From the IMG/VR virus record IMGVR_UViG_3300036857_000120: DNA of 64,000 nucleotides. One strand, 5' to 3'. The position numbers and the translations under genes are program-made. A model generated the notes under the pieces. That model made no database searches and was not told the DNA's origin. It worked only from the letters and a program-made list of their open reading frames with translations. This document shows, piece by piece, positions 18,833 to 61,540 of the stretch (position 1 is the first letter of the stretch; the number at the start of each line of letters is the position of its first letter). The stretch comes from an uncultured virus (IMG/VR IMGVR_UViG_3300036857_000120) (Duplodnaviria; Heunggongvirae; Uroviricota; Caudoviricetes).

Positions 18833-19003
18833 ATGCAACTAGGTCTAGCGTTCTGGATCCTCATGCTCCTCTGGCTCGTCCTGGGCCTCGTCTGGCATTT
18901 CGGTCCGGGCTGGCCGTATCTCGGATGGGGGAGCGGCTTGCTCCTGTTCATCCTCCTCCTTCTCCTGGGCTGGCGCGTGTTCGGTCCGCCGTTGCACGGA
19001 TGA
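18833..19003 (+). CDS. Two-TM small protein (holin candidate)
   Basis: GGGAGG RBS; 56 aa almost entirely hydrophobic. Confidence 0.65.
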   Translation: MQLGLAFWILMLLWLVLGLVWHFGPGWPYLGWGSGLLLFILLLLLGWRVFGPPLHG

Positions 19004-22673: not shown

Positions 22674-23537
22674 TTAAATTAACGGGTCCGGATCCTCGCC
22701 CTCGTGATGGATCAGGGCGGGCCGCATCCAATGCCGTTGAAAGGCGCGCCATGCCGGGGCCGGGGCGTGGCGTTCCTGGGATGGGGTCTCCGGTCGCCAT
22801 AGCATCGCGAACGGGGTGAAGCCGATGGAGACCATCTGGCGCAAGCGATGCTCGGCGAGATCAAACGTGTCCTTCGGATATCCGATCAGGACATAGGCGC
22901 GCATGCGGTGCGAGCGGCGCGTGAAACCGGCCTGGAGGAGGCGGCGGGCGGCGCTCTCCAGGGTCTCGAATGCGTCGCCCGGATCATAGGCAAAGAACAT
23001 ATTCGGCCGGGGCGTGAGGCTCGCGAGGAGGTCGACCTGATAGTCCTCCAGGGACAGAGCTTCGAGTCCGCCACTGAATTCGATGCGGCGCTTCTGGCGG
23101 CGCAGCATGGCAAAGACCGCCTCGACGTGATCGCGCGGACAGGCGAGGAGATTGTCGTCGAGGATGTTCCAGCCGTCATAGATCGGGAGGACGTTCGCGG
23201 TCGGCCATTTCTTCCAGACGCCGCAGAACCAGCAACGGCGCGGGCAACCGCGCGAGGTAATGGTATATCCAGGCTTGACGTAACGGCCGGGGATGAAGGT
23301 CAAGCTATCGTCGCCATAGGCAACCCCGCCGATCTGGACGGGCGCGACGTGTCGCCATTGCTCGGCGAGCTCCTCCGCGGCGGGCTTGTCATAGGTGAAG
23401 GTCACGGAGACGTGGACCTCGTCGGCCTCGTCGAAAAATCCGGGCGGTCCGAAGCGCGCGAGATCGTCGTCCGGGGTCGCCTTCGTTCGCCGCGGGAAGA
23501 CGCGGATCAATCGTCGGCGATCTCGCTCGTCACCCAT
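22674..23537 (-). CDS. Radical SAM protein
   Basis: SRGCPRRCWFC motif, DDN motif; start uncertain. Confidence 0.8.
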   Translation of the reverse strand: MGDERDRRRLIRVFPRRTKATPDDDLARFGPPGFFDEADEVHVSVTFTYDKPAAEELAEQWRHVAPVQIGGVAYGDDSLTFIPGRYVKPGYTITSRGCPRRCWFCGVWKKWPTANVLPIYDGWNILDDNLLACPRDHVEAVFAMLRRQKRRIEFSGGLEALSLEDYQVDLLASLTPRPNMFFAYDPGDAFETLESAARRLLQAGFTRRSHRMRAYVLIGYPKDTFDLAEHRLRQMVSIGFTPFAMLWRPETPSQERHAPAPAWRAFQRHWMRPALIHHEGEDPDPLI

Positions 23538-26775: not shown

Positions 26776-27387
26776 TCATCGCGAGGACCAGAGGTCCGGT
26801 TGTCTGGCGGCGTTGTCGAGCTTGGGGAGATTGACGCTGTAGCGCGTGACGCTGGTCCCGTCGAAACTATGCGCGCCCGCGGCGGCGCACAGATGGATCC
26901 GGCGCGCGCTATTGACCCGTCCGACATGGAGCCAGCAACCGGCGGCGGCGGCGAGCTCGCCCCATAGCGGGAGCGTGCGCTCCTTCCATTCCGACGTCCC
27001 GCCGATGAACATTCCGAGGTCCGCCCCGACGAGCGGGCGGACGTCCTCCGCGCTCATGCCGTCCTGGATGGGGAGGAGGAGCGGGGCGATCCCGGCGAGG
27101 CGGTCGCGCCAGCGGAGCGAGGTCTCCAGGGAGGCGAGCCCTCCGGCGACGATATCGGGGAGCGCGATCCAGTCCGCCTCCGGGCCGAGGCGCTCGATAG
27201 CGCCCATGAATTTGATCTCGTCGAACGGGCGGCCTTGCGTGTAGGCGGTCCATGCGCCGTTGTCGATTGCGTAGCGGAAGCCTTGCGGCCAGCGGACCTC
27301 CGTCGGCGGGATAATCAGTCGCCATCCCGCGCGACGGAGCTTGTCGAGGTTTTTGAGCGTCCCGGTCCGGGAAGCGTATGCGATCAT
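26776..27387 (-). CDS. TGT-like deazaguanine DNA transglycosylase candidate (DpdA-like)
   Basis: DNGAW, LPD, QDG, IGG, HVGRVN, SFDGT motifs in TGT-barrel order; adjacent to VUT and T-fold genes. Confidence 0.65.
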   Translation of the reverse strand: MIAYASRTGTLKNLDKLRRAGWRLIIPPTEVRWPQGFRYAIDNGAWTAYTQGRPFDEIKFMGAIERLGPEADWIALPDIVAGGLASLETSLRWRDRLAGIAPLLLPIQDGMSAEDVRPLVGADLGMFIGGTSEWKERTLPLWGELAAAAGCWLHVGRVNSARRIHLCAAAGAHSFDGTSVTRYSVNLPKLDNAARQPDLWSSR

Positions 27388-27896
27388 CGCTCGATCTTCC
27401 GGCGAAGGAGATGGATGACGGGCAGAGAAGCGATCACCATCCATACCTTGCCGACGATCTGTCCGACCAGGAAATCCAGGCTACCGAATGCGATCAACAG
27501 GAAGGCGGCGCTATCGATGATCGCGCCGACGATGCTCGACGCCGCGACCGCGAGCATGAAGCGGCGGCGGGCGAGCGGGGTATAGACGCCGAGATCGGCA
27601 AGCTCGGAGATCAGGAAGGCGGTCGCCGATGCGATGGCGATGGCGGGCGGAGCAATCCAGAACGAGAGCGCCGCGCCCGCGATGATGCATGCGACCGAGA
27701 CTTTCCAGCCATGGCGAAGCTGGACCAGGTCACGAAGGACGAGCGCCGCGCCGATCATGAGCACGCCCGACGGAGCCATGAGCCCGGGCAGAACGGGCAC
27801 GAGGCAAGGACCATGCGGGACGCATTCGGTCCCGACATGCGTCACGAGCCAATTCGCGGCGGGGATCGTCGCTATGTAGAGGAGGATGCCGAGCAT
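27384..27896 (-). CDS. VUT/YhhQ-family queuosine-precursor transporter
   Basis: ANW, G..LVLRD.VQ, AS..AF..SE..D..VY..L, DS..F...AFG, GQIVGK motifs. Confidence 0.85.
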   Translation of the reverse strand: MLGILLYIATIPAANWLVTHVGTECVPHGPCLVPVLPGLMAPSGVLMIGAALVLRDLVQLRHGWKVSVACIIAGAALSFWIAPPAIAIASATAFLISELADLGVYTPLARRRFMLAVAASSIVGAIIDSAAFLLIAFGSLDFLVGQIVGKVWMVIASLPVIHLLRRKIER

Positions 27897-52450: not shown

Positions 52451-52800
52451 GACTTGTCCTCCGTGGTGACTTCCCAAGGGCAGCATGCGAAGTTCGCGTC
52501 TTCGGGATTTTCGTCGAGGTCGGTCTCGTCATCGAGACCCATGTCGTGCGCGTTGTCGGCGCAAGTATCGATGACGTCTTTGACCAACGGCCGGAACACA
52601 TCGGGCAACGTGAAGACGGTTGCGCCTTCCGGATTAGTCCCGGCATGGACGGCGTCGACGAAAAGTCCCCATGTCTCCGCGCGCGACGTCGATTCGATAT
52701 CGCCTTGCACCGCGTCGTCGCGATGGTTTGTCCAGAGAGCTTCGGCCATCGATGCGAATGAAAGCGCAGCGGCGCGGCGGGCAAACGTGAGCTTCATCAT
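52447..52800 (-). CDS. Acidic hypothetical protein
   Basis: ATGA coupling. Confidence 0.5.
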   Translation of the reverse strand: MMKLTFARRAAALSFASMAEALWTNHRDDAVQGDIESTSRAETWGLFVDAVHAGTNPEGATVFTLPDVFRPLVKDVIDTCADNAHDMGLDDETDLDENPEDANFACCPWEVTTEDKS

Positions 52801-53324
52801 GAGAGCCACTCCAGGACGCGGACCGCATCCGCCCCGCCATCGGAGAGGACGTCCGCTTGCTTCTCGGTATTGACGCGATCCGCCAGAGCGATGTTCTCGC
52901 TCATGAGACGGGCGAGGAGTTTGCGGTCGACCTTGCGCGCGGGAATGTGCGCGCGGTCGAATTCCTCGCGCGAGATCTCGATGGTGACGAGCCGCGCCGG
53001 ATTGAACAGGCGCACGCGCTTGGAGGAGGACGCCATCACGACGAAGCGGCGGCGACCGCATCCGACGACGGGGTGATCGAGCCATATCTCGATCATCTGG
53101 AAATCGTCGGCGGGGATCATCTCCGGCGCGACGTAAACGGAGTGAACGAGGTCCGCGTCGGACTCGCGATGGACGACCGCGGCGGGGCGCGGGGTCTCGA
53201 CAACGGGCGCGGCCGGAGCGGGGATCGCGGTCGAGGCGGCGAGAGCGGCGGCGGCGGCGCGCGCACGGCGCGTCTCCCATGCCTTGCGGCCCGCCTTCTG
53301 GTAGGTCGTGAGAGTGTCGGTCAT
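52797..53324 (-). CDS. Hypothetical protein with N-terminal KAWETRR motif
   Basis: First gene after promoter and hairpin-RBS. Confidence 0.65.
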   Translation of the reverse strand: MTDTLTTYQKAGRKAWETRRARAAAAALAASTAIPAPAAPVVETPRPAAVVHRESDADLVHSVYVAPEMIPADDFQMIEIWLDHPVVGCGRRRFVVMASSSKRVRLFNPARLVTIEISREEFDRAHIPARKVDRKLLARLMSENIALADRVNTEKQADVLSDGGADAVRVLEWLS

Positions 53325-53383
53325 TTCGGTCTCCCGGGCATTTGCCCTTGGAACGGACGGCGGGGATCGCCGTCCTCGTGGTC

Positions 53384-53412
53384 AAAATAGGACCGTCGGT
53401 CCGATGGGTCAA
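53384..53412 (-). promoter_or_regulatory. Sigma70-like promoter
   Basis: CTAGGACCCC-TTGACC-17-TATTTT. Confidence 0.7.
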
Positions 53413-53418
53413 GGGGTC

Positions 53419-54273
53419 CTAGGCGGACCTCGCGACCTCGTGAGCGGCGGCGCGAGCGGCCTCCTCCCGGGCGCGGCGCGTCGCCCATGCCTTGCGGCCG
53501 GGAGTGAGCGCGGCGACGGAGGGATCGACGGGCGGCGGCGGATTGCGCCACGAGAACGAGCGGCCGAGTCCCTTCACGGTCCGCAGTCCGCGCGCGTGCG
53601 CGCGGTCCTCGATCTCCAGCGCGCGCGCATGGAGCGCCGGTTGCGTTTGAGCCAGCTCCTCGATCTCGCGCAATTTCATCGCGGGGCAGAACCAGCACGA
53701 GGATTTGCGGGGAACGGGGAGACCGGCCTCGCGGATCACGCGCTCGCATCCGGCGCGGTCCAGATTCCATTCGACGAGCGGATAGCGATATTCATATCCG
53801 GGCTCGCCACGTCCCGCGGCATGCTTCACGCGCCGCGCGTCGGCGGGGCCAGCGTCATATCCGATCAGCTTGCGGATCGTCGCGCCATGGTTCCAAGTCT
53901 TCGTCTTCGAATTCCAGCCGAAGACCTCGCGGCATTTTTTATCCTGGGGGACGATCTTCCATTTGATCGAGCAAGAGTGTCCGCCGTAAGCGAGCGAGGG
54001 CAGAACGGATTTGCGGAGGCATTCGTCGCCGAGAGAAGCGTCGCCAGCAATCGGGCTCGCATTCTTCACGGTCTGGATCGCGGGCCAGCCAATCGAGGCG
54101 AGCCACGCTTGCATGATCGGGAGGTAAGCGTAAGTCTCCGGGCGCTCCGATCCAGTGTCGGCAAATAAGATCAGATCGGGAGCGGGCTCGCCGCGGCGAT
54201 GCATCTCGACGAGCATCGCGGTCGAATTCAAGCCAAGTCCGTAAGCAACTACGACGGGGATTCGGTCGGTCAT
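53419..54273 (-). CDS. PAPS reductase-family (PP-loop) protein
   Basis: YGLGLNSTAM, FADTG.E.PETY, CS.KWK, YPL, KSSCWFCP. Confidence 0.8.
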   Translation of the reverse strand: MTDRIPVVVAYGLGLNSTAMLVEMHRRGEPAPDLILFADTGSERPETYAYLPIMQAWLASIGWPAIQTVKNASPIAGDASLGDECLRKSVLPSLAYGGHSCSIKWKIVPQDKKCREVFGWNSKTKTWNHGATIRKLIGYDAGPADARRVKHAAGRGEPGYEYRYPLVEWNLDRAGCERVIREAGLPVPRKSSCWFCPAMKLREIEELAQTQPALHARALEIEDRAHARGLRTVKGLGRSFSWRNPPPPVDPSVAALTPGRKAWATRRAREEAARAAAHEVARSA

Positions 54274-54321
54274 TTTTGTCTCCCGGGCAAATGCCCTTGG
54301 ATCGAGTGGGGCGGAGGCGCT

Positions 54322-54867
54322 TTACAGCGCGGCCTCCGCGACGAGTTGAGTGAGCGGCTTGCGGCTCATATGGAGCGTGTATCCGGTGCGCTTCTCCATC
54401 TCGACGTATTTCGCGAACAGATCCGGACGAGCCTTCGCGCCGAGGGCGAGATCGCGCTTGTCGCCCATGATGCAGAACACGCAAGAGAGGCGGAGATTGC
54501 CCGCCGCATAGGCCGGATGCGGCTCCTGTCCCGCGGCGCGGATCGTCTCGAAAACCTCCGCGGTCGTGAGCGAATGGATCGGAAGCCAGTCGTACCATTC
54601 ACGGCCCGCGACGCTTGCAGCTCGAGCTGCTCTGCGCTTTACGGGCACTCATCCGCAGCGGTGAGCGTGATGCTGCGAGTAATCCAGCATTGGACGCAGA
54701 GCAGCTCGACCCTCTCACCACCTGGTGGGTTTTACGTGCAACCCCTGACCACCAGCCGGTGGCACCACCTCTACAGCAAGGGCCAATGGGTTCGCCGTAG
54801 GAGGCTGCATCAGGACGAAAAGCGCGCCGCGCGCGACGAGGTCGGAGATGGTCGGAAGGTCGGTCAT
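54322..54867 (-). pseudogene. Second PAPS reductase-like gene, core replaced by a structured insert
   Basis: N-terminal MTDLPTISDLVARGALFVL and C-terminal WLPIH..H.AY..G..RLSC.FCI in one frame, separated by 195 nt with two TGA. Confidence 0.75.
54616..54809. other. 194-nt fold-back foreign element (ncRNA or MITE-like candidate)
   Basis: TGCAGC/GCTGCA ends, perfect 15-bp internal inverted repeat, several hairpins. Confidence 0.7.
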
Positions 54868-54908
54868 CGTGTTCTCCCGGGCAAAATCGCCCTTGGCTTT
54901 ATGACGTT

Positions 54909-54937
54909 AATGTAGGGACCCCGGGCCGTTAGGTCCA
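54909..54937 (-). promoter_or_regulatory. Sigma70-like promoter
   Basis: CTAGGACCCC-TGGACC-17-TACATT. Confidence 0.65.
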
Positions 54938-55031
54938 GGGGTCCTAGATCACGAACCCGCGACCGACCAGGCCGCGCTAATCGTTAGGCTTTTCGGTCCT
55001 GGTTCCGGGCGTTAAAAGGTTAATCGGGGAT

Positions 55032-55472
55032 TTAATCCTTTAACGAGCGGGCCAGAGCGTCCGCCATGGCGTCGGCGAGCGGAATCCCGCGGAAGGCGGC
55101 GTCCAGGACGAGCCGGTTGAGCACGTCGGCGGGGAGCCGGAGCGGGGTCTCGCGGCGGCGGTCCCCGTCCAGGAGGACCAGCGCGAGCGCGATTGGACGA
55201 GCAATCCCGTTCCCGACCGGGGCGGGAGGAGGCGGGAGCGCCGCGGCGGTCGTCGGGCGCGGCAGAAGGCGGACGCCATTCTCGACGGGACGGCGGCGGA
55301 GCGAGATGCCGAGGCGCGAGCAAGTGACCTGGAGCGAGCCGACGGTCACGCCGATGATCTCGGCGATCTCCTCGCGCGAGGTCCCGCGCTCGACAAGGTT
55401 GCGGATTTGATCGATCCGCTCCGGGGTGAATTTGACGGCGCGGCCTCGATTGTTGGTTGTGATGGAGATCAC
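55032..55472 (-). CDS. HTH DNA-binding protein
   Basis: KFTPE.I..I..LV..G.SREEIAE.IGVTVGSLQVTCS.LGISL. Confidence 0.75.
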   Translation of the reverse strand: MISITTNNRGRAVKFTPERIDQIRNLVERGTSREEIAEIIGVTVGSLQVTCSRLGISLRRRPVENGVRLLPRPTTAAALPPPPAPVGNGIARPIALALVLLDGDRRRETPLRLPADVLNRLVLDAAFRGIPLADAMADALARSLKD

Positions 55473-55556
55473 AGGGATTCCTCCCGGGCAAATGCCCTTG
55501 GCTAGTGGTCGACAGGGACGGGGATTGCGTTCAAATCGGACGGCGGACTGGCGGTC

Positions 55557-56063
55557 CTATCTGACGAGATATTTCGTCGCCTCCTCGATTGGCATCTCGT
55601 GCAGGAACCGCGCTCCGGGTTCCTGGTCGCGGACGTGGCGGACGATCTGCTCGCGGGTATGTCCGCCTTTACGGAGCGCGACCTGGAGCACCTTGTCGCC
55701 GCGGAGCCAGAGGACTTTCGTCGCGAGAATGCGCTTGACGGTTTTCTCCGTCGCGATCCGGTCGAGCTCCTTGTGGCAGAGCAATTCGAGCGAGCACGGC
55801 ATGGAATGCGTCTCGCCTCCGGCCTCGTAAGTGTCCGCGGGATAGGTCGCGGCGATCTGTTTCTCCAACTCCTCAAAGCGCAAGCGAAAGCGCGGGTCCG
55901 CTTTGAACGGATGATGCATGTCGGGTCCGCCTTGTCCGTGATTGGTCACGGTGCAAAACGGTTTGCCGTCGACCCAAATGTCGGCGGAATAGGCGGGAGT
56001 CTCCTCCGAGAGCGAGCGGCTCTCGCGGACCTTGCGTAGTTCGATCTTCGGTTGCTTAGACAT
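55557..56063 (-). CDS. Hypothetical protein
   Basis: SEET..Y.A...VDG......N.G.GG; AAGGAG RBS. Confidence 0.65.
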   Translation of the reverse strand: MSKQPKIELRKVRESRSLSEETPAYSADIWVDGKPFCTVTNHGQGGPDMHHPFKADPRFRLRFEELEKQIAATYPADTYEAGGETHSMPCSLELLCHKELDRIATEKTVKRILATKVLWLRGDKVLQVALRKGGHTREQIVRHVRDQEPGARFLHEMPIEEATKYLVR

Positions 56064-56337
56064 GGTCGTCCTCTCCTTTGGCGTTGTTGCGGGCGGCGCA
56101 CTCCTCCTCCGCCACGTCGTTCCAGCGGCGGATGAAATCGCGGAGCCATCGGCACTGGATCGTGATCTCGCCGATCTCGGTCGCGTCATCGGTCGAGGCG
56201 AGCGCATATTCGAGATCGCACAGAAGCTCGTCGGCGCTTAACGCTTCGGTCCCATGCGCGAAGCCCTCGACCTTCTCCGCTTGGGTGCGGGTCCAGTCGT
56301 GATATTCGCGAATGAGCGCGGTCATCTGGTCGCTCAT
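56056..56337 (-). CDS. Hypothetical protein
   Basis: GGAGG RBS; SADE...WL..F..RW. Confidence 0.55.
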   Translation of the reverse strand: MSDQMTALIREYHDWTRTQAEKVEGFAHGTEALSADELLCDLEYALASTDDATEIGEITIQCRWLRDFIRRWNDVAEEECAARNNAKGEDDHV

Positions 56338-56498
56338 GGGGTCCTCCAGTCGGAGAGCGTGATGCAAGTCACGGAGGCGAAGGGGCCGAAGCTCGCGGCC
56401 TCGCAGGTCACGCGGGAGTGGGCGATGATGGCGATCCCCATCACGCCGACGATGGCAATGATGGAGAGCGCCTTGGAGGCGTTGCGGAACCATTTCAT
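56334..56498 (-). CDS. Small TM protein
   Basis: 54 aa ORF right after a hairpin-RBS element. Confidence 0.55.
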   Translation of the reverse strand: MKWFRNASKALSIIAIVGVMGIAIIAHSRVTCEAASFGPFASVTCITLSDWRTP

Positions 56499-56649
56499 GA
56501 TCGTCTCCCGGGCATGCTGCCCTTAGAGGGTTGAATGAGGGACCGGAGATTTATCGGGGCTTACAGCCGTGGCGGCCCGCGTCGTCTCCGGTCATGGTGC
56601 CCTTAGTCTCGCGTGATCCGCCGAGGGCGAGGCGGGCGCTCCGTCAACG

Positions 56650-57198
56650 TCACCCGTAGATGATGACGTCGCACATAGTCGTGAGGAGATCGTCCTCGCC
56701 ACCGACGCCGAACTCGTCGCATCCGCGTTGCGCGATCATCGCCTTGATCGTCTCGATAGCGCGGCGCGCGTCCTCCTCCGGAACGTGAGTCGTATGCGCG
56801 AGAGCGGAGAGCGCGGTCTCCAGGGCGATGCGCGTGCGGGTCGCGAGTTGCATGTCGGGGCGGTCGTTCGCCTTCGCGGCGATCTGGAGCGATCCCCACG
56901 GATATCCCTGTCGCGCGAGATCGGCGCGCACGGTCTCCAGGGTCTCGGTCTCCGCATCGTCGTCGGAAAGCTCGATGCAATTCTCGACGCTCGAATGGGC
57001 GAGATTGGCCTCCGCGTCGGAGAGTTGCACATTGAACGGGAACGAGGTCACTTGCCGGATCATCTCGGCGACGGCGGAGAGGTCCTCATAATCCGGGGAG
57101 TCTTTGTTGCCGTCGTCGGCGAGGACCTCCAAGCGGCCCTCGATATCCGTCTCGATCACGGAGGCGATCTCGGCGGAGGGGATCAGTAGCGTTGCCAT
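56650..57198 (-). CDS. Acidic hypothetical protein
   Basis: AAGGA RBS; D/E rich. Confidence 0.55.
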   Translation of the reverse strand: MATLLIPSAEIASVIETDIEGRLEVLADDGNKDSPDYEDLSAVAEMIRQVTSFPFNVQLSDAEANLAHSSVENCIELSDDDAETETLETVRADLARQGYPWGSLQIAAKANDRPDMQLATRTRIALETALSALAHTTHVPEEDARRAIETIKAMIAQRGCDEFGVGGEDDLLTTMCDVIIYG

Positions 57199-57223
57199 TG
57201 TCGTCGTCCTTTCGTCTCGTGCG

Positions 57224-57457
57224 TTAGTCGTGTTCGCGGTCGGCGCGGATGATCGCGCACATGGAATAGTTGCCGAAGGGCTTGATGCTCTCGACGCCAT
57301 CCCAGAGCGAGATGCCGCGGCGGACGGGCTTGCCGTTGTAGTCGGCGATGGTGACGGTCTTCTCGGTCCGCGAGAGAATGGTGACGCGATAGATCGTGTC
57401 GTAATCGCAGATCGAGCGGGTCGAGTAAGTCCGACCGACTTGGAATTTCGTGGTCAT
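57224..57457 (-). CDS. Hypothetical protein
   Basis: KF.VG.TY..RSICD.D......I..RT.KTV; follows hairpin-RBS. Confidence 0.7.
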   Translation of the reverse strand: MTTKFQVGRTYSTRSICDYDTIYRVTILSRTEKTVTIADYNGKPVRRGISLWDGVESIKPFGNYSMCAIIRADREHD

Positions 57458-57596
57458 GATCGTCTCCCGGGCATTTGCCCTTGGTTTCGGTTTCGGCGCT
57501 TTGGTCGCCCCGCCGGATCGGGGTCTTTCGGTAGGGGCCGGTCCGTTTCAAGGGACCTCCGGGAAGGCGACCAAAGCGCCGTCGTTCAATGTCCGT

Positions 57597-59765: not shown

Positions 59766-60956
59766 ATGCCGCTCATTCTGCAAAAGGCCGGTTTCGGCGA
59801 GGCGCTCGAGGAGCTCGATCCTCTCCTCGTATGCGAGGAGACGGAGACGGGCTGGCGCGGCTTGACGAATGTCGGCGAGCTTCTCGACGTCAAGGGCCAG
59901 CACGGCGAGCGCGCGCGCGTCCCGGAGGAGATCATCGTCACGTGCAACGGCGAGCCCTACGGCCGACGCCAGGTCCCGGAGCCGGAGCCGCGGAGCGTCA
60001 CCGAATACATTCGCAACGTCGAGCTTGCGCGCTCCTTCATGCGCGCGAGCGAATTCGAGGCGGCGCTGGCGCGGAGCAATGCCGCGCTCTCCATCGCGCC
60101 GACGGACGTCGCCCGATACAACCGCGCATTTGCATTCCTCCATCTCGGACGATGGTTCGAAGGGATGGACGATCTCGTCCATGTCGAGCGCGAAAGCGCG
60201 CGTTTCATGCGGCCGATGCATCGCGCGGCCATCGCCGCGGGCTTGCGGCCATGGCGCGGCGAGGATCTCGGCGGCAAGCGGATCCTCCTCCTCGACGATC
60301 ACGGTTTCGGCGACACGATCCAGATGCTCCGATACGTCCCGGCATTGGAGGCGGCGGGCGCGGAGGTCTCGATCCTGTGCCGCAATGAGATCACCCATCT
60401 CGCGGGGCAATGCGCGAAGGTCTCGGCGAATTCGATCCGGTTTATCGAGGCGGATTATTTTTGCTCGTTCCTCCATCTCCTCCGGTTTCTGCCGAAGCCG
60501 GTCCCGGCCGCGCCGTATCTCCAGGCGGACACGGACCTCGACGATTGGGGGGATGATCGTGCGCGCATCGGGATCGCGTGGTCGGTCGGGGTCGCGCACC
60601 AGGACGACTATCCGCGCGAGATTCCGCTCGAGCTCCTCGTCGCGGCGATTGGCGGTCCCGACGTCGAGCTTCACAGCGTCCAGACGCAAGGCGGCGAGGA
60701 GGCGACGGCGCATGGCGTCGTCGCGCACGAATTCCGGGACTTCATGCAATGCGCGGATCTCATGATGCAGATGGACGAGATCGTCGCCATCGATACGGCG
60801 GCGCTCCATCTCGCCGGAGCCATCGGTCATCCGAAGGTCACCGCGCTCTTGTCGCACTGGCATTCCTGGAGATGGGACGCGCCATGGTATCCGACCATGA
60901 AGCTCGCAATCCAAAAGTCGCCCGGGGATTGGGCGAGCGCGCTCGCGCAATGTTGA
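59766..60956 (+). CDS. TPR + GT-B (family 9-like) glycosyltransferase
   Basis: TPR helices, W.G..L.GKRILL....GFGD.IQ..RY, D.I..IDTA..HLAGA.G, W.W...WYP. Confidence 0.8.
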   Translation: MPLILQKAGFGEALEELDPLLVCEETETGWRGLTNVGELLDVKGQHGERARVPEEIIVTCNGEPYGRRQVPEPEPRSVTEYIRNVELARSFMRASEFEAALARSNAALSIAPTDVARYNRAFAFLHLGRWFEGMDDLVHVERESARFMRPMHRAAIAAGLRPWRGEDLGGKRILLLDDHGFGDTIQMLRYVPALEAAGAEVSILCRNEITHLAGQCAKVSANSIRFIEADYFCSFLHLLRFLPKPVPAAPYLQADTDLDDWGDDRARIGIAWSVGVAHQDDYPREIPLELLVAAIGGPDVELHSVQTQGGEEATAHGVVAHEFRDFMQCADLMMQMDEIVAIDTAALHLAGAIGHPKVTALLSHWHSWRWDAPWYPTMKLAIQKSPGDWASALAQC

Positions 60957-61540
60957 CCCTCCCGATCACGTCGCGGAACGAATTGCCGCCGATCCAGCCG
61001 GTCAATTGGGCGGGCTTGCCGCGCGAGTATCTCAACGCCGGAGAGTTGGAGATCATCATCGCCCTGGTTCGCTCCATCGATCCGAAGATCATGGTCGAGA
61101 TCGGGCTCGCGGCCGGAAGGACGGCGAAAGCAATCCTCCGCGAGCTTCCGGATCTGGAGCGGTATATCGGCGTCGACACCGATCCCGGATATCGCACGAA
61201 ACTGTCGAGCCAATGGACCGAGCGCGGCGCAAATCCCGGTCATCTCGCGCTCGCCGATTCGCGCTTTGACCGATGGCTTCTGCCGCGCGGATCCCTCGAT
61301 CTCATTGCGGATGATTTCCCGGAGATCGACGCGATGTTTATCGACGGCGATCATTCGAGCGAGGCGGTCCGCCACGATAGCAATCTCGCGCGTTCCGTCG
61401 TGCGGCCGGGAGGGATCATCCTCTGGCACGACTACCACAATCACGGCGTCGAGGTGACGCGCGTCCTCGAGCTCGACCGCGATCTCGGTTGCGATATCCG
61501 CCACGTCGAGGGGACTTGGCTGGCATACGAAAGGCGATGA
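60950..61540 (+). CDS. Class I SAM methyltransferase (Methyltransf_24-like)
   Basis: VEIG...G.T, FIDGDHS..AV..D, PGG.I.WHDY. Confidence 0.85.
   Translation: MLTLPITSRNELPPIQPVNWAGLPREYLNAGELEIIIALVRSIDPKIMVEIGLAAGRTAKAILRELPDLERYIGVDTDPGYRTKLSSQWTERGANPGHLALADSRFDRWLLPRGSLDLIADDFPEIDAMFIDGDHSSEAVRHDSNLARSVVRPGGIILWHDYHNHGVEVTRVLELDRDLGCDIRHVEGTWLAYERR

Follow-up and report, generated by a model that had tools for sequence, protein, structure and literature searches.

What has taken the place of the middle of a PAPS-reductase-like gene in an uncultured tailed phage from soil, and could the replacing DNA have a role of its own? The stretch that carries this gene (64,000 nt of the IMG/VR record IMGVR_UViG_3300036857_000120, hereafter the window) covers part of the genome of a tailed phage and encodes Mu-like baseplate proteins, a terminase, a YqaJ exonuclease, an MT-A70 methylase and radical-SAM proteins; from a weak GcrA-like match and a depletion of GAATC, we infer an alphaproteobacterial host. 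A broken PAPS-reductase-like gene is by itself ordinary. Here, our comparisons indicate a real gene replacement, with an insert that contains a phage RNA motif of putative function which appears to be uncatalogued (Table 1).

The broken gene is, by homology, a member of the phage PAPS-reductase-like proteins (PF01507, phrog_424; distant from DndC), from which it differs in that the PP-loop and the central domain are absent. Its minus-strand frame reads MTDLPTISDLVARGALFVL from 54867, meets two TGA stops inside the insert and restarts in frame at SVAGREWYDWLP, as had been described in the original prediction. In a search within the window, residues 1–35 of protein P0030 align to the 5' remnant (E 2e-4). 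The 3' remnant has 554 longer homologues, with identities of at most 84%, and is still clearly homologous to PF01507, although the SGGKDS PP-loop that serves as the criterion for this family is deleted. The intact PF01507 proteins among these homologues are mostly 250–280 aa long. In 93 of 120 listed homologues of the 3' remnant, 139–153 codons separate the N of NHSGGKDS from the S of SxAGR, the commonest spans among the 120 being 139 codons (52 proteins) and 141 codons (27 proteins). Hence the gene has lost about 417–423 bp, including the PP-loop, and has 195 bases instead. The original proposal of an insertion plus a deletion, with loss of the PP-loop and of a central domain longer than 65 codons, agrees well with this estimate of about 139–141 missing codons, with the missing middle itself, which was not found elsewhere in the window (about 139 codons), and with the state of related loci. 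We compared 103 related loci of viruses and bacteria, and 95 of them have an intact gene; the remaining eight include this record itself, a contig end and decayed copies, and this insert occurs in none of the others. Homologous proteins do not align through the segment, which resembles the gene middle in no frame (HMM scores in the shuffle range); a hypermutated gene middle was discarded on the same scores. A self-splicing intron was also rejected, as its removal would leave the gene about 139 codons short, and those codons are nowhere in the window.

The gene had further been credited with its own promoter and hairpin-RBS. Its leader does carry repeats common to the early genes, but a sigma-70 scan upstream of 54867 detected no promoter, so that the notion of an own promoter rests on these common repeats. 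We noticed that a hairpin-RBS repeat of about 21 nt precedes six minus-strand early genes within 53333–57486, and that a promoter-like repeat recurs at about 53421, 54946 and 57634. A translational operator or a cassette-exchange site are possible roles for these repeats.

Could the junctions be an assembly artefact, as the original prediction had allowed? The evidence on them consists of assembled contigs (a unitig and a contig) rather than raw reads, and the window record and runs X1/X2 may be source data, which leaves some room for a chimera. Nevertheless, a single unitig of run X1 (depth 26.2) spans 52500–55380, and thus both junctions, with 0 differences. Run X3, whose codes denote a different sample and study, has a contig of 460 nt that equals 54236–54695 exactly and thereby bridges the left junction in a second sample; the right junction is bridged by none of the X3 pieces listed. 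The gene break is real, and we reject a chimera as exceedingly improbable. Virus record G001 is identical over 53400–55600 and possibly represents the same data as the window. In runs X4 and X5, the word share (0.07) is near the 0.076 given by the insert alone, and the bin 54644–54777 has no cover in the approximately 48% of X4 that was read; we do not count either result as evidence.

Table 1. Features of the interrupted locus (positions in the window).
Feature	Position	Strand	Basis
Second gene of the PAPS-reductase-like family with an open frame of 284 aa, immediately downstream of the broken gene	53419..54273	-	phrog_424, E 1.8e-25
3' remnant of the broken PAPS-reductase-like gene, 97 codons + stop, with LSCVFCI motif	54322..54615	-	Protein homology
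Foreign insert, 194–195 nt, in place of about 139–141 codons	54616..54810		Homologue comparison, composition, contigs
6-bp terminal inverted repeat, left arm (partner 54804–54809)	54616..54621		14/3000 shuffles
Three-way-junction RNA motif, complete copy, 88 nt	54622..54709	+	Homologues with covariation
P1 5' arm, pairs with 54695–54709; sequence variable among members, pairing kept	54622..54636	+	Alignment
P2, near-invariant hairpin CTCATCCGCAGCGGTGAG, bulged U, CNG loop	54648..54665	+	Member comparison
P3 hairpin, GNRA tetraloop	54670..54690	+	Member comparison
P1 3' arm	54695..54709	+	Pairs with 54622..54636
Rest of insert, CCACC/GGTGG hairpins, weak fold signal, no homologue found	54710..54809		Similarity and fold searches
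Terminator-like hairpin + T run just past the motif	54714..54733	+	Consensus match only
5' remnant of the broken gene, 19 codons, stops just short of the lost NHSGGKDS loop	54811..54867	-	Frame reading
Leader of the broken gene: hairpin-RBS repeat (common to six early genes) + promoter-like repeat	54876..54950	-	Repeat comparison

The composition of the insert agrees with the original suggestion of foreign DNA. No other stretch of the window is less phage-like: the insert has the lowest likelihood in Markov models of order 3–5 (trained without the insert, which biases the higher orders), and its dinucleotide ratios are opposite to those of the window (CG 0.70 vs. 1.47; CA/TG 1.49 vs. 0.79). 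The enrichment that had been noticed in GCWGC (six) and CCACC/GGTGG (five) amounts to 11 sites in 194 nt, as compared with at most 3 in other 194-nt windows. The predicted TGCAGC/GCTGCA ends sit on the homology boundaries, and repeats of at least 6 bp appear in 14 of 3000 shuffles with boundary slack; a repeat placed precisely at the two ends, which chance would produce in about 0.5% of cases, suggests a unit with defined limits more than a random fragment. Against dinucleotide shuffles, the folding z-score is −4.58 for the minus strand and −3.41 for the plus strand (0/200 shuffles each), and the insert ranks second among 65 sampled 194-nt windows, after a terminator region near 19001. The signal comes from 54616–54714 (z −4.87 minus, −3.16 plus), whereas 54715–54809 reaches only −1.46, with 17/200 shuffles equally good. 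The perfect 15-bp stem announced for this insert is present as P1 (the longest perfect inverted repeat in 300 dinucleotide shuffles has 12 bp). The picture of all 194 nt as a single fold-back unit had to be abandoned, since only 54622–54709 has homologues, whose flanks differ.

On the strength of its alignment, this 88-nt segment is a conserved structured RNA motif with compensatory base changes; the structured RNA suspected in the insert is thus backed by phage homologues with covariation. The set used comprises 10 sequences from about seven lineages, without correction for relatedness (L308/L317 and L325/L332 are related pairs). Changes on both sides were found at 10/10 pairs in helix 1 (P1) and at 6/9 in P3, and RNAalifold predicts 28 pairs, 17 of them with compensatory (double-sided) changes. 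Paired cells make up 91.4% in the alignment, 76.2% with shuffled partners and 36.5–47.6% when slid (0/500 shuffles). In aligned columns, the identity of member copies to the window copy is 50–63%, the closest reaching 63%. The hairpin with a GTAA loop expected inside the stem exists, with the refinement that this loop belongs to the plus strand (54679–54682); the other nine copies have GTGA. The invariance of P2 is partly by construction, as this hairpin was the search pattern. A profile built without the window copy, and still containing the selected P2 core, recovers the window copy at E 1.6e-10, and its second-best match has E 1. A descriptor of features not covered by the search pattern, drawn up after the members had been seen, is passed by 8/9 member loci, by 0/26 other pattern matches and by 1/3000 flank shuffles. 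Under model R2, the training copies score 67.6–93.7 bits and all else in 85 sources at most 26.6 bits. The P2 palindrome (CCGC-N-GCGG) co-folds at −23.2 kcal/mol, as compared with −5.3 kcal/mol for the single hairpin, and in this calculation it could pair two molecules.

An exact scan with the 18-nt inner hairpin retrieved 12 viral stretches, of which seven (three distinct sequences) hold the same three-way junction with different stems and four (L294, L296, L300 and L304) were dropped as chance matches. A looser pattern retrieved 42 stretches (35 distinct after removal of seven duplicates), and the junction is present at nine distinct loci including the window record, twice at one of them (10 copies). 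The eight other phage loci belong to about six lineages; L336 (26.6 bits) and L347 (25.7 bits) were left out of the count. The motif follows a capsid gene in L308 and L317, and precedes a protease-capsid gene in L325 and L332. In L309, it is located among consecutive small genes on the same strand, upstream of a helicase gene (early operon), and in L344 (1458–1556) it occupies nearly all of the 99 nt that separate two late genes and is antisense to each of them. In L307, it lies 620 nt past a radical-SAM gene whose protein is 78% identical to that of window 22677–23510; this carrier and L344, whose terminase DNA is 72% identical, are relatives of the window phage. In L323, a small ORF and a PAPS-reductase-like gene come after the motif. 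We noticed that the latter is different from the broken gene and that the motif lies 390 nt upstream of it (L323 408–1136), by coincidence or as part of a shared cassette. Between its capsid and portal genes, L308 has two diverged tandem copies (1476–1640) where the syntenic L317 has one, a gain of about one unit. Altogether, the motif is intergenic and sense to its neighbour genes at 7/9 loci and antisense at 2/9 (L344 and the window), and strong copies occur once per record in 5/5 records searched whole, as in the window.

The plus strand folds better in 8/10 copies, the exceptions being L309 and the window copy (−50.2 minus vs. −48.5 plus). The conserved GNRA loop and this fold-energy asymmetry point to the plus strand as the strand of the motif, in which case the minus-strand early transcript would carry its complement. 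The original idea that the structured RNA is now under an early promoter is therefore not supported.

How did the motif come to interrupt this gene? We estimate a probability of roughly 55% that the insert is a motif-bearing fragment from another phage, captured by illegitimate or relaxed-homology recombination. A one-off event in a hypervariable early cassette would have taken in the motif together with about 100 nt of donor flank, and the PAPS-reductase-like gene, with some 420 bp exchanged for foreign bases, would have become a pseudogene. We propose that its loss was tolerated because the gene is accessory and a second gene of the family follows. The region is a cassette hot spot, with a leader repeat before six early genes and a related strain that skips 53376–55294. 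This strain, present in runs X1 and X3 at a depth of about 6, joins across that stretch, so that both PAPS-reductase-like genes are absent there. As to the recombination context, the YqaJ exonuclease is encoded in the window, and phage recombinases are established agents of exchanges of this kind (PMC3945230).

Against capture stand the absence of a donor among our searches, the 63% identity of the closest motif and the lack of a match for the flank of about 100 nt, together with the 6-bp terminal repeat and the slightly better minus-strand fold of the window copy. With the insert as query, blastn against phages, plasmids and genomes of E. coli yielded neither a donor nor a further copy, exact patterns in viral contigs gave chance matches or its own record only, and no donor appeared in metagenome contigs and genome contigs. 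The same holds for BLAST in bacterial sets of 401, 350, 301, 301, 33, 5 and 5 genomes, which may overlap (in the large sets, two candidates were scored per genome and one genome was unscored); two matches in the 350-genome set fall inside coding genes. The BLASTN search proposed at the outset thus found no other copy of the whole insert in these sets, and relatives match 54622–54709 only; the flank (54710–54809) has no homologue in the searches made. Likewise, the single-sequence model R1 detected nothing in 150 genomes and in 30 RT loci, and the motif of a homologue used as query detected nothing in cultured phages. A coding origin was set aside, as no protein relatives turned up for three open frames or for a further one translated with table 6.

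The motif itself may be an RNA module that acts in single-stranded form and is read from the plus strand, with P1 closing the unit and the GNRA loop probably docking on the helix stack. We favour a model in which the invariant bulged P2 hairpin is a recognition surface that a protein most likely binds; our second choice is processing or self-cleavage. Because the motif opposes the early transcript in the window, we propose that it is probably silent there, or expressed only by antisense transcription, which would end at the hairpin and T run past the motif.

Alternatively, the motif or the whole 194 nt could be a non-autonomous mobile element, moved in trans as ssDNA or RNA by an enzyme that may be of the HUH/REP type, of the IS110 type or a reverse transcriptase, and inserted here with an adjacent deletion. 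The variety of settings (at least five gene contexts across the carriers), the two orientations and the tandem gain in L308 would fit such mobility; however, each of the five records searched whole has one copy. The 6-bp terminal repeat at the insert ends also speaks for it, but is not common to other members, and we found neither a target duplication at the junctions nor shared ends beyond P1. Moreover, no transposase or RT was detected in 60 of the 101 called ORFs of the window, itself a partial genome, and a model search of 300 sampled proteobacterial genomes (29 candidates scored in each) gave no strong match and a single weak one (25.7 bits). All in all, we regard a mobile element as rather unlikely, but as the foremost alternative to capture. 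REP/REPIN-type hairpin elements are a natural comparison for the motif, which is also small, structured, found at varied sites, sometimes in tandem and without an enzyme of its own. The same likeness extends to Ssr9 of ISPpu9 (IS110), whose Ssr9-only circles are a precedent for RNA-only mobile modules (PMC12288879). The motif departs from both in that no partner transposase and no conserved terminal boxes were found, that each phage record has one copy and that the insertion here came with a deletion of about 420 bp.

A third possibility is that the motif represents a small self-cleaving ribozyme of a new type, or an RNase-processing signal, that cuts polycistronic phage mRNA and is present here by accident. 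Small ribozymes occur in intergenic, sense-oriented places such as those of the seven loci mentioned above, and the size, the three-way junction, the conserved unpaired nucleotides and the GNRA loop would suit one. The motif resembles hammerhead, twister-sister, pistol and HDV-like ribozymes in size, multi-helix junction, conserved core and phage intergenic site, but Rfam and descriptors reveal no core motif of these classes. The Infernal/Rfam scan originally called for matched no Rfam 15 family on the insert at the gathering cut-off (best 18.6 bits), and three homologous loci gave 0 matches at E ≤ 1. HDV and hammerhead descriptors were negative on the insert, linear and circularized, on both strands. 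With the two antisense loci added, we judge this function decidedly improbable. Other candidates were negative as well: RNase P RNA type A (no RF00010 match; the control matched in 11/14 genomes) and, by Rfam and descriptors, group I, IS605-end, IS91-end and c-di-GMP likenesses. A combined version also appears unlikely, in which phages have an undescribed protein-free family of mobile RNA or ssDNA, built around the 88-nt junction and either copied in trans to new sites in both orientations or self-cleaving; under it, the locus may record a recent replacement of the catalytic core of the gene by the junction.

Finally, the minus strand of the 194 nt could be read as the msr-msd of an orphan retron, or as the cDNA made from it, which the early promoter would express as a decoy. 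Size, terminal complementarity with CAGC and two hairpins followed by a long stem give the whole insert a superficial likeness to the layout in PMC6868368. However, its ends pair over 6 bp only, as compared with about 8–30 nt of terminal complementarity with a priming G in retrons (PMC6868368). In addition, homologues cover just the 88-nt part, which is half as long and on the other strand, no RT occurs among 15 scanned neighbours of homologues, and 30 RT loci contain no match. We consider this reading very improbable and largely refuted.

The motif has no match among Rfam 15 families and, judging from these comparisons, is apparently uncatalogued. Listings and the opening lines of abstracts name no such motif, which does not imply its absence from print. 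Candidate structured RNAs of phages have been described by comparative genomics (PMC10690425), and the motif is, like these orphan RNAs and the Rfam motifs of unknown function, short, intergenic, covarying and carried by IMG/VR phages; it differs from them by occurring in both orientations and, in the window, inside a destroyed gene. Its core words are absent from seven supplementary files of that paper, a comparison in which file 4 is possibly partial and which lies outside files 1 and 2 (maybe alignments). We thus have an alignment-backed RNA motif without an Rfam 15 model, small enough for direct assays of self-cleavage, dimerization and protein binding. Such motifs have yielded new ribozyme and riboswitch classes. 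The present one may define a new family of mobile or regulatory RNAs, although we would not expect it to turn out as a new mobile or catalytic class. If the motif moves, it would be a minimal phage mobile element able to destroy genes; without such movement, the locus would still be a clean record of phage mosaicism within a gene.

Several other observations concern the window as a whole. CGATCG, GGCGCC, AGCGCT, TGATCA and TGCGCA are almost wholly avoided over 1–64000, and CTGA, CCAA and CTGC are depleted. A Vut_1 gene (queuosine-precursor transporter-like) lies beside a gene for a 203-aa unknown protein at 26779–27896, a pairing that we take to be typical of deazaguanine DNA-modification clusters. 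At 59766–61537, a TPR/glycosyltransferase-9-like gene and a methyltransferase gene are located between the terminase and capsid genes.
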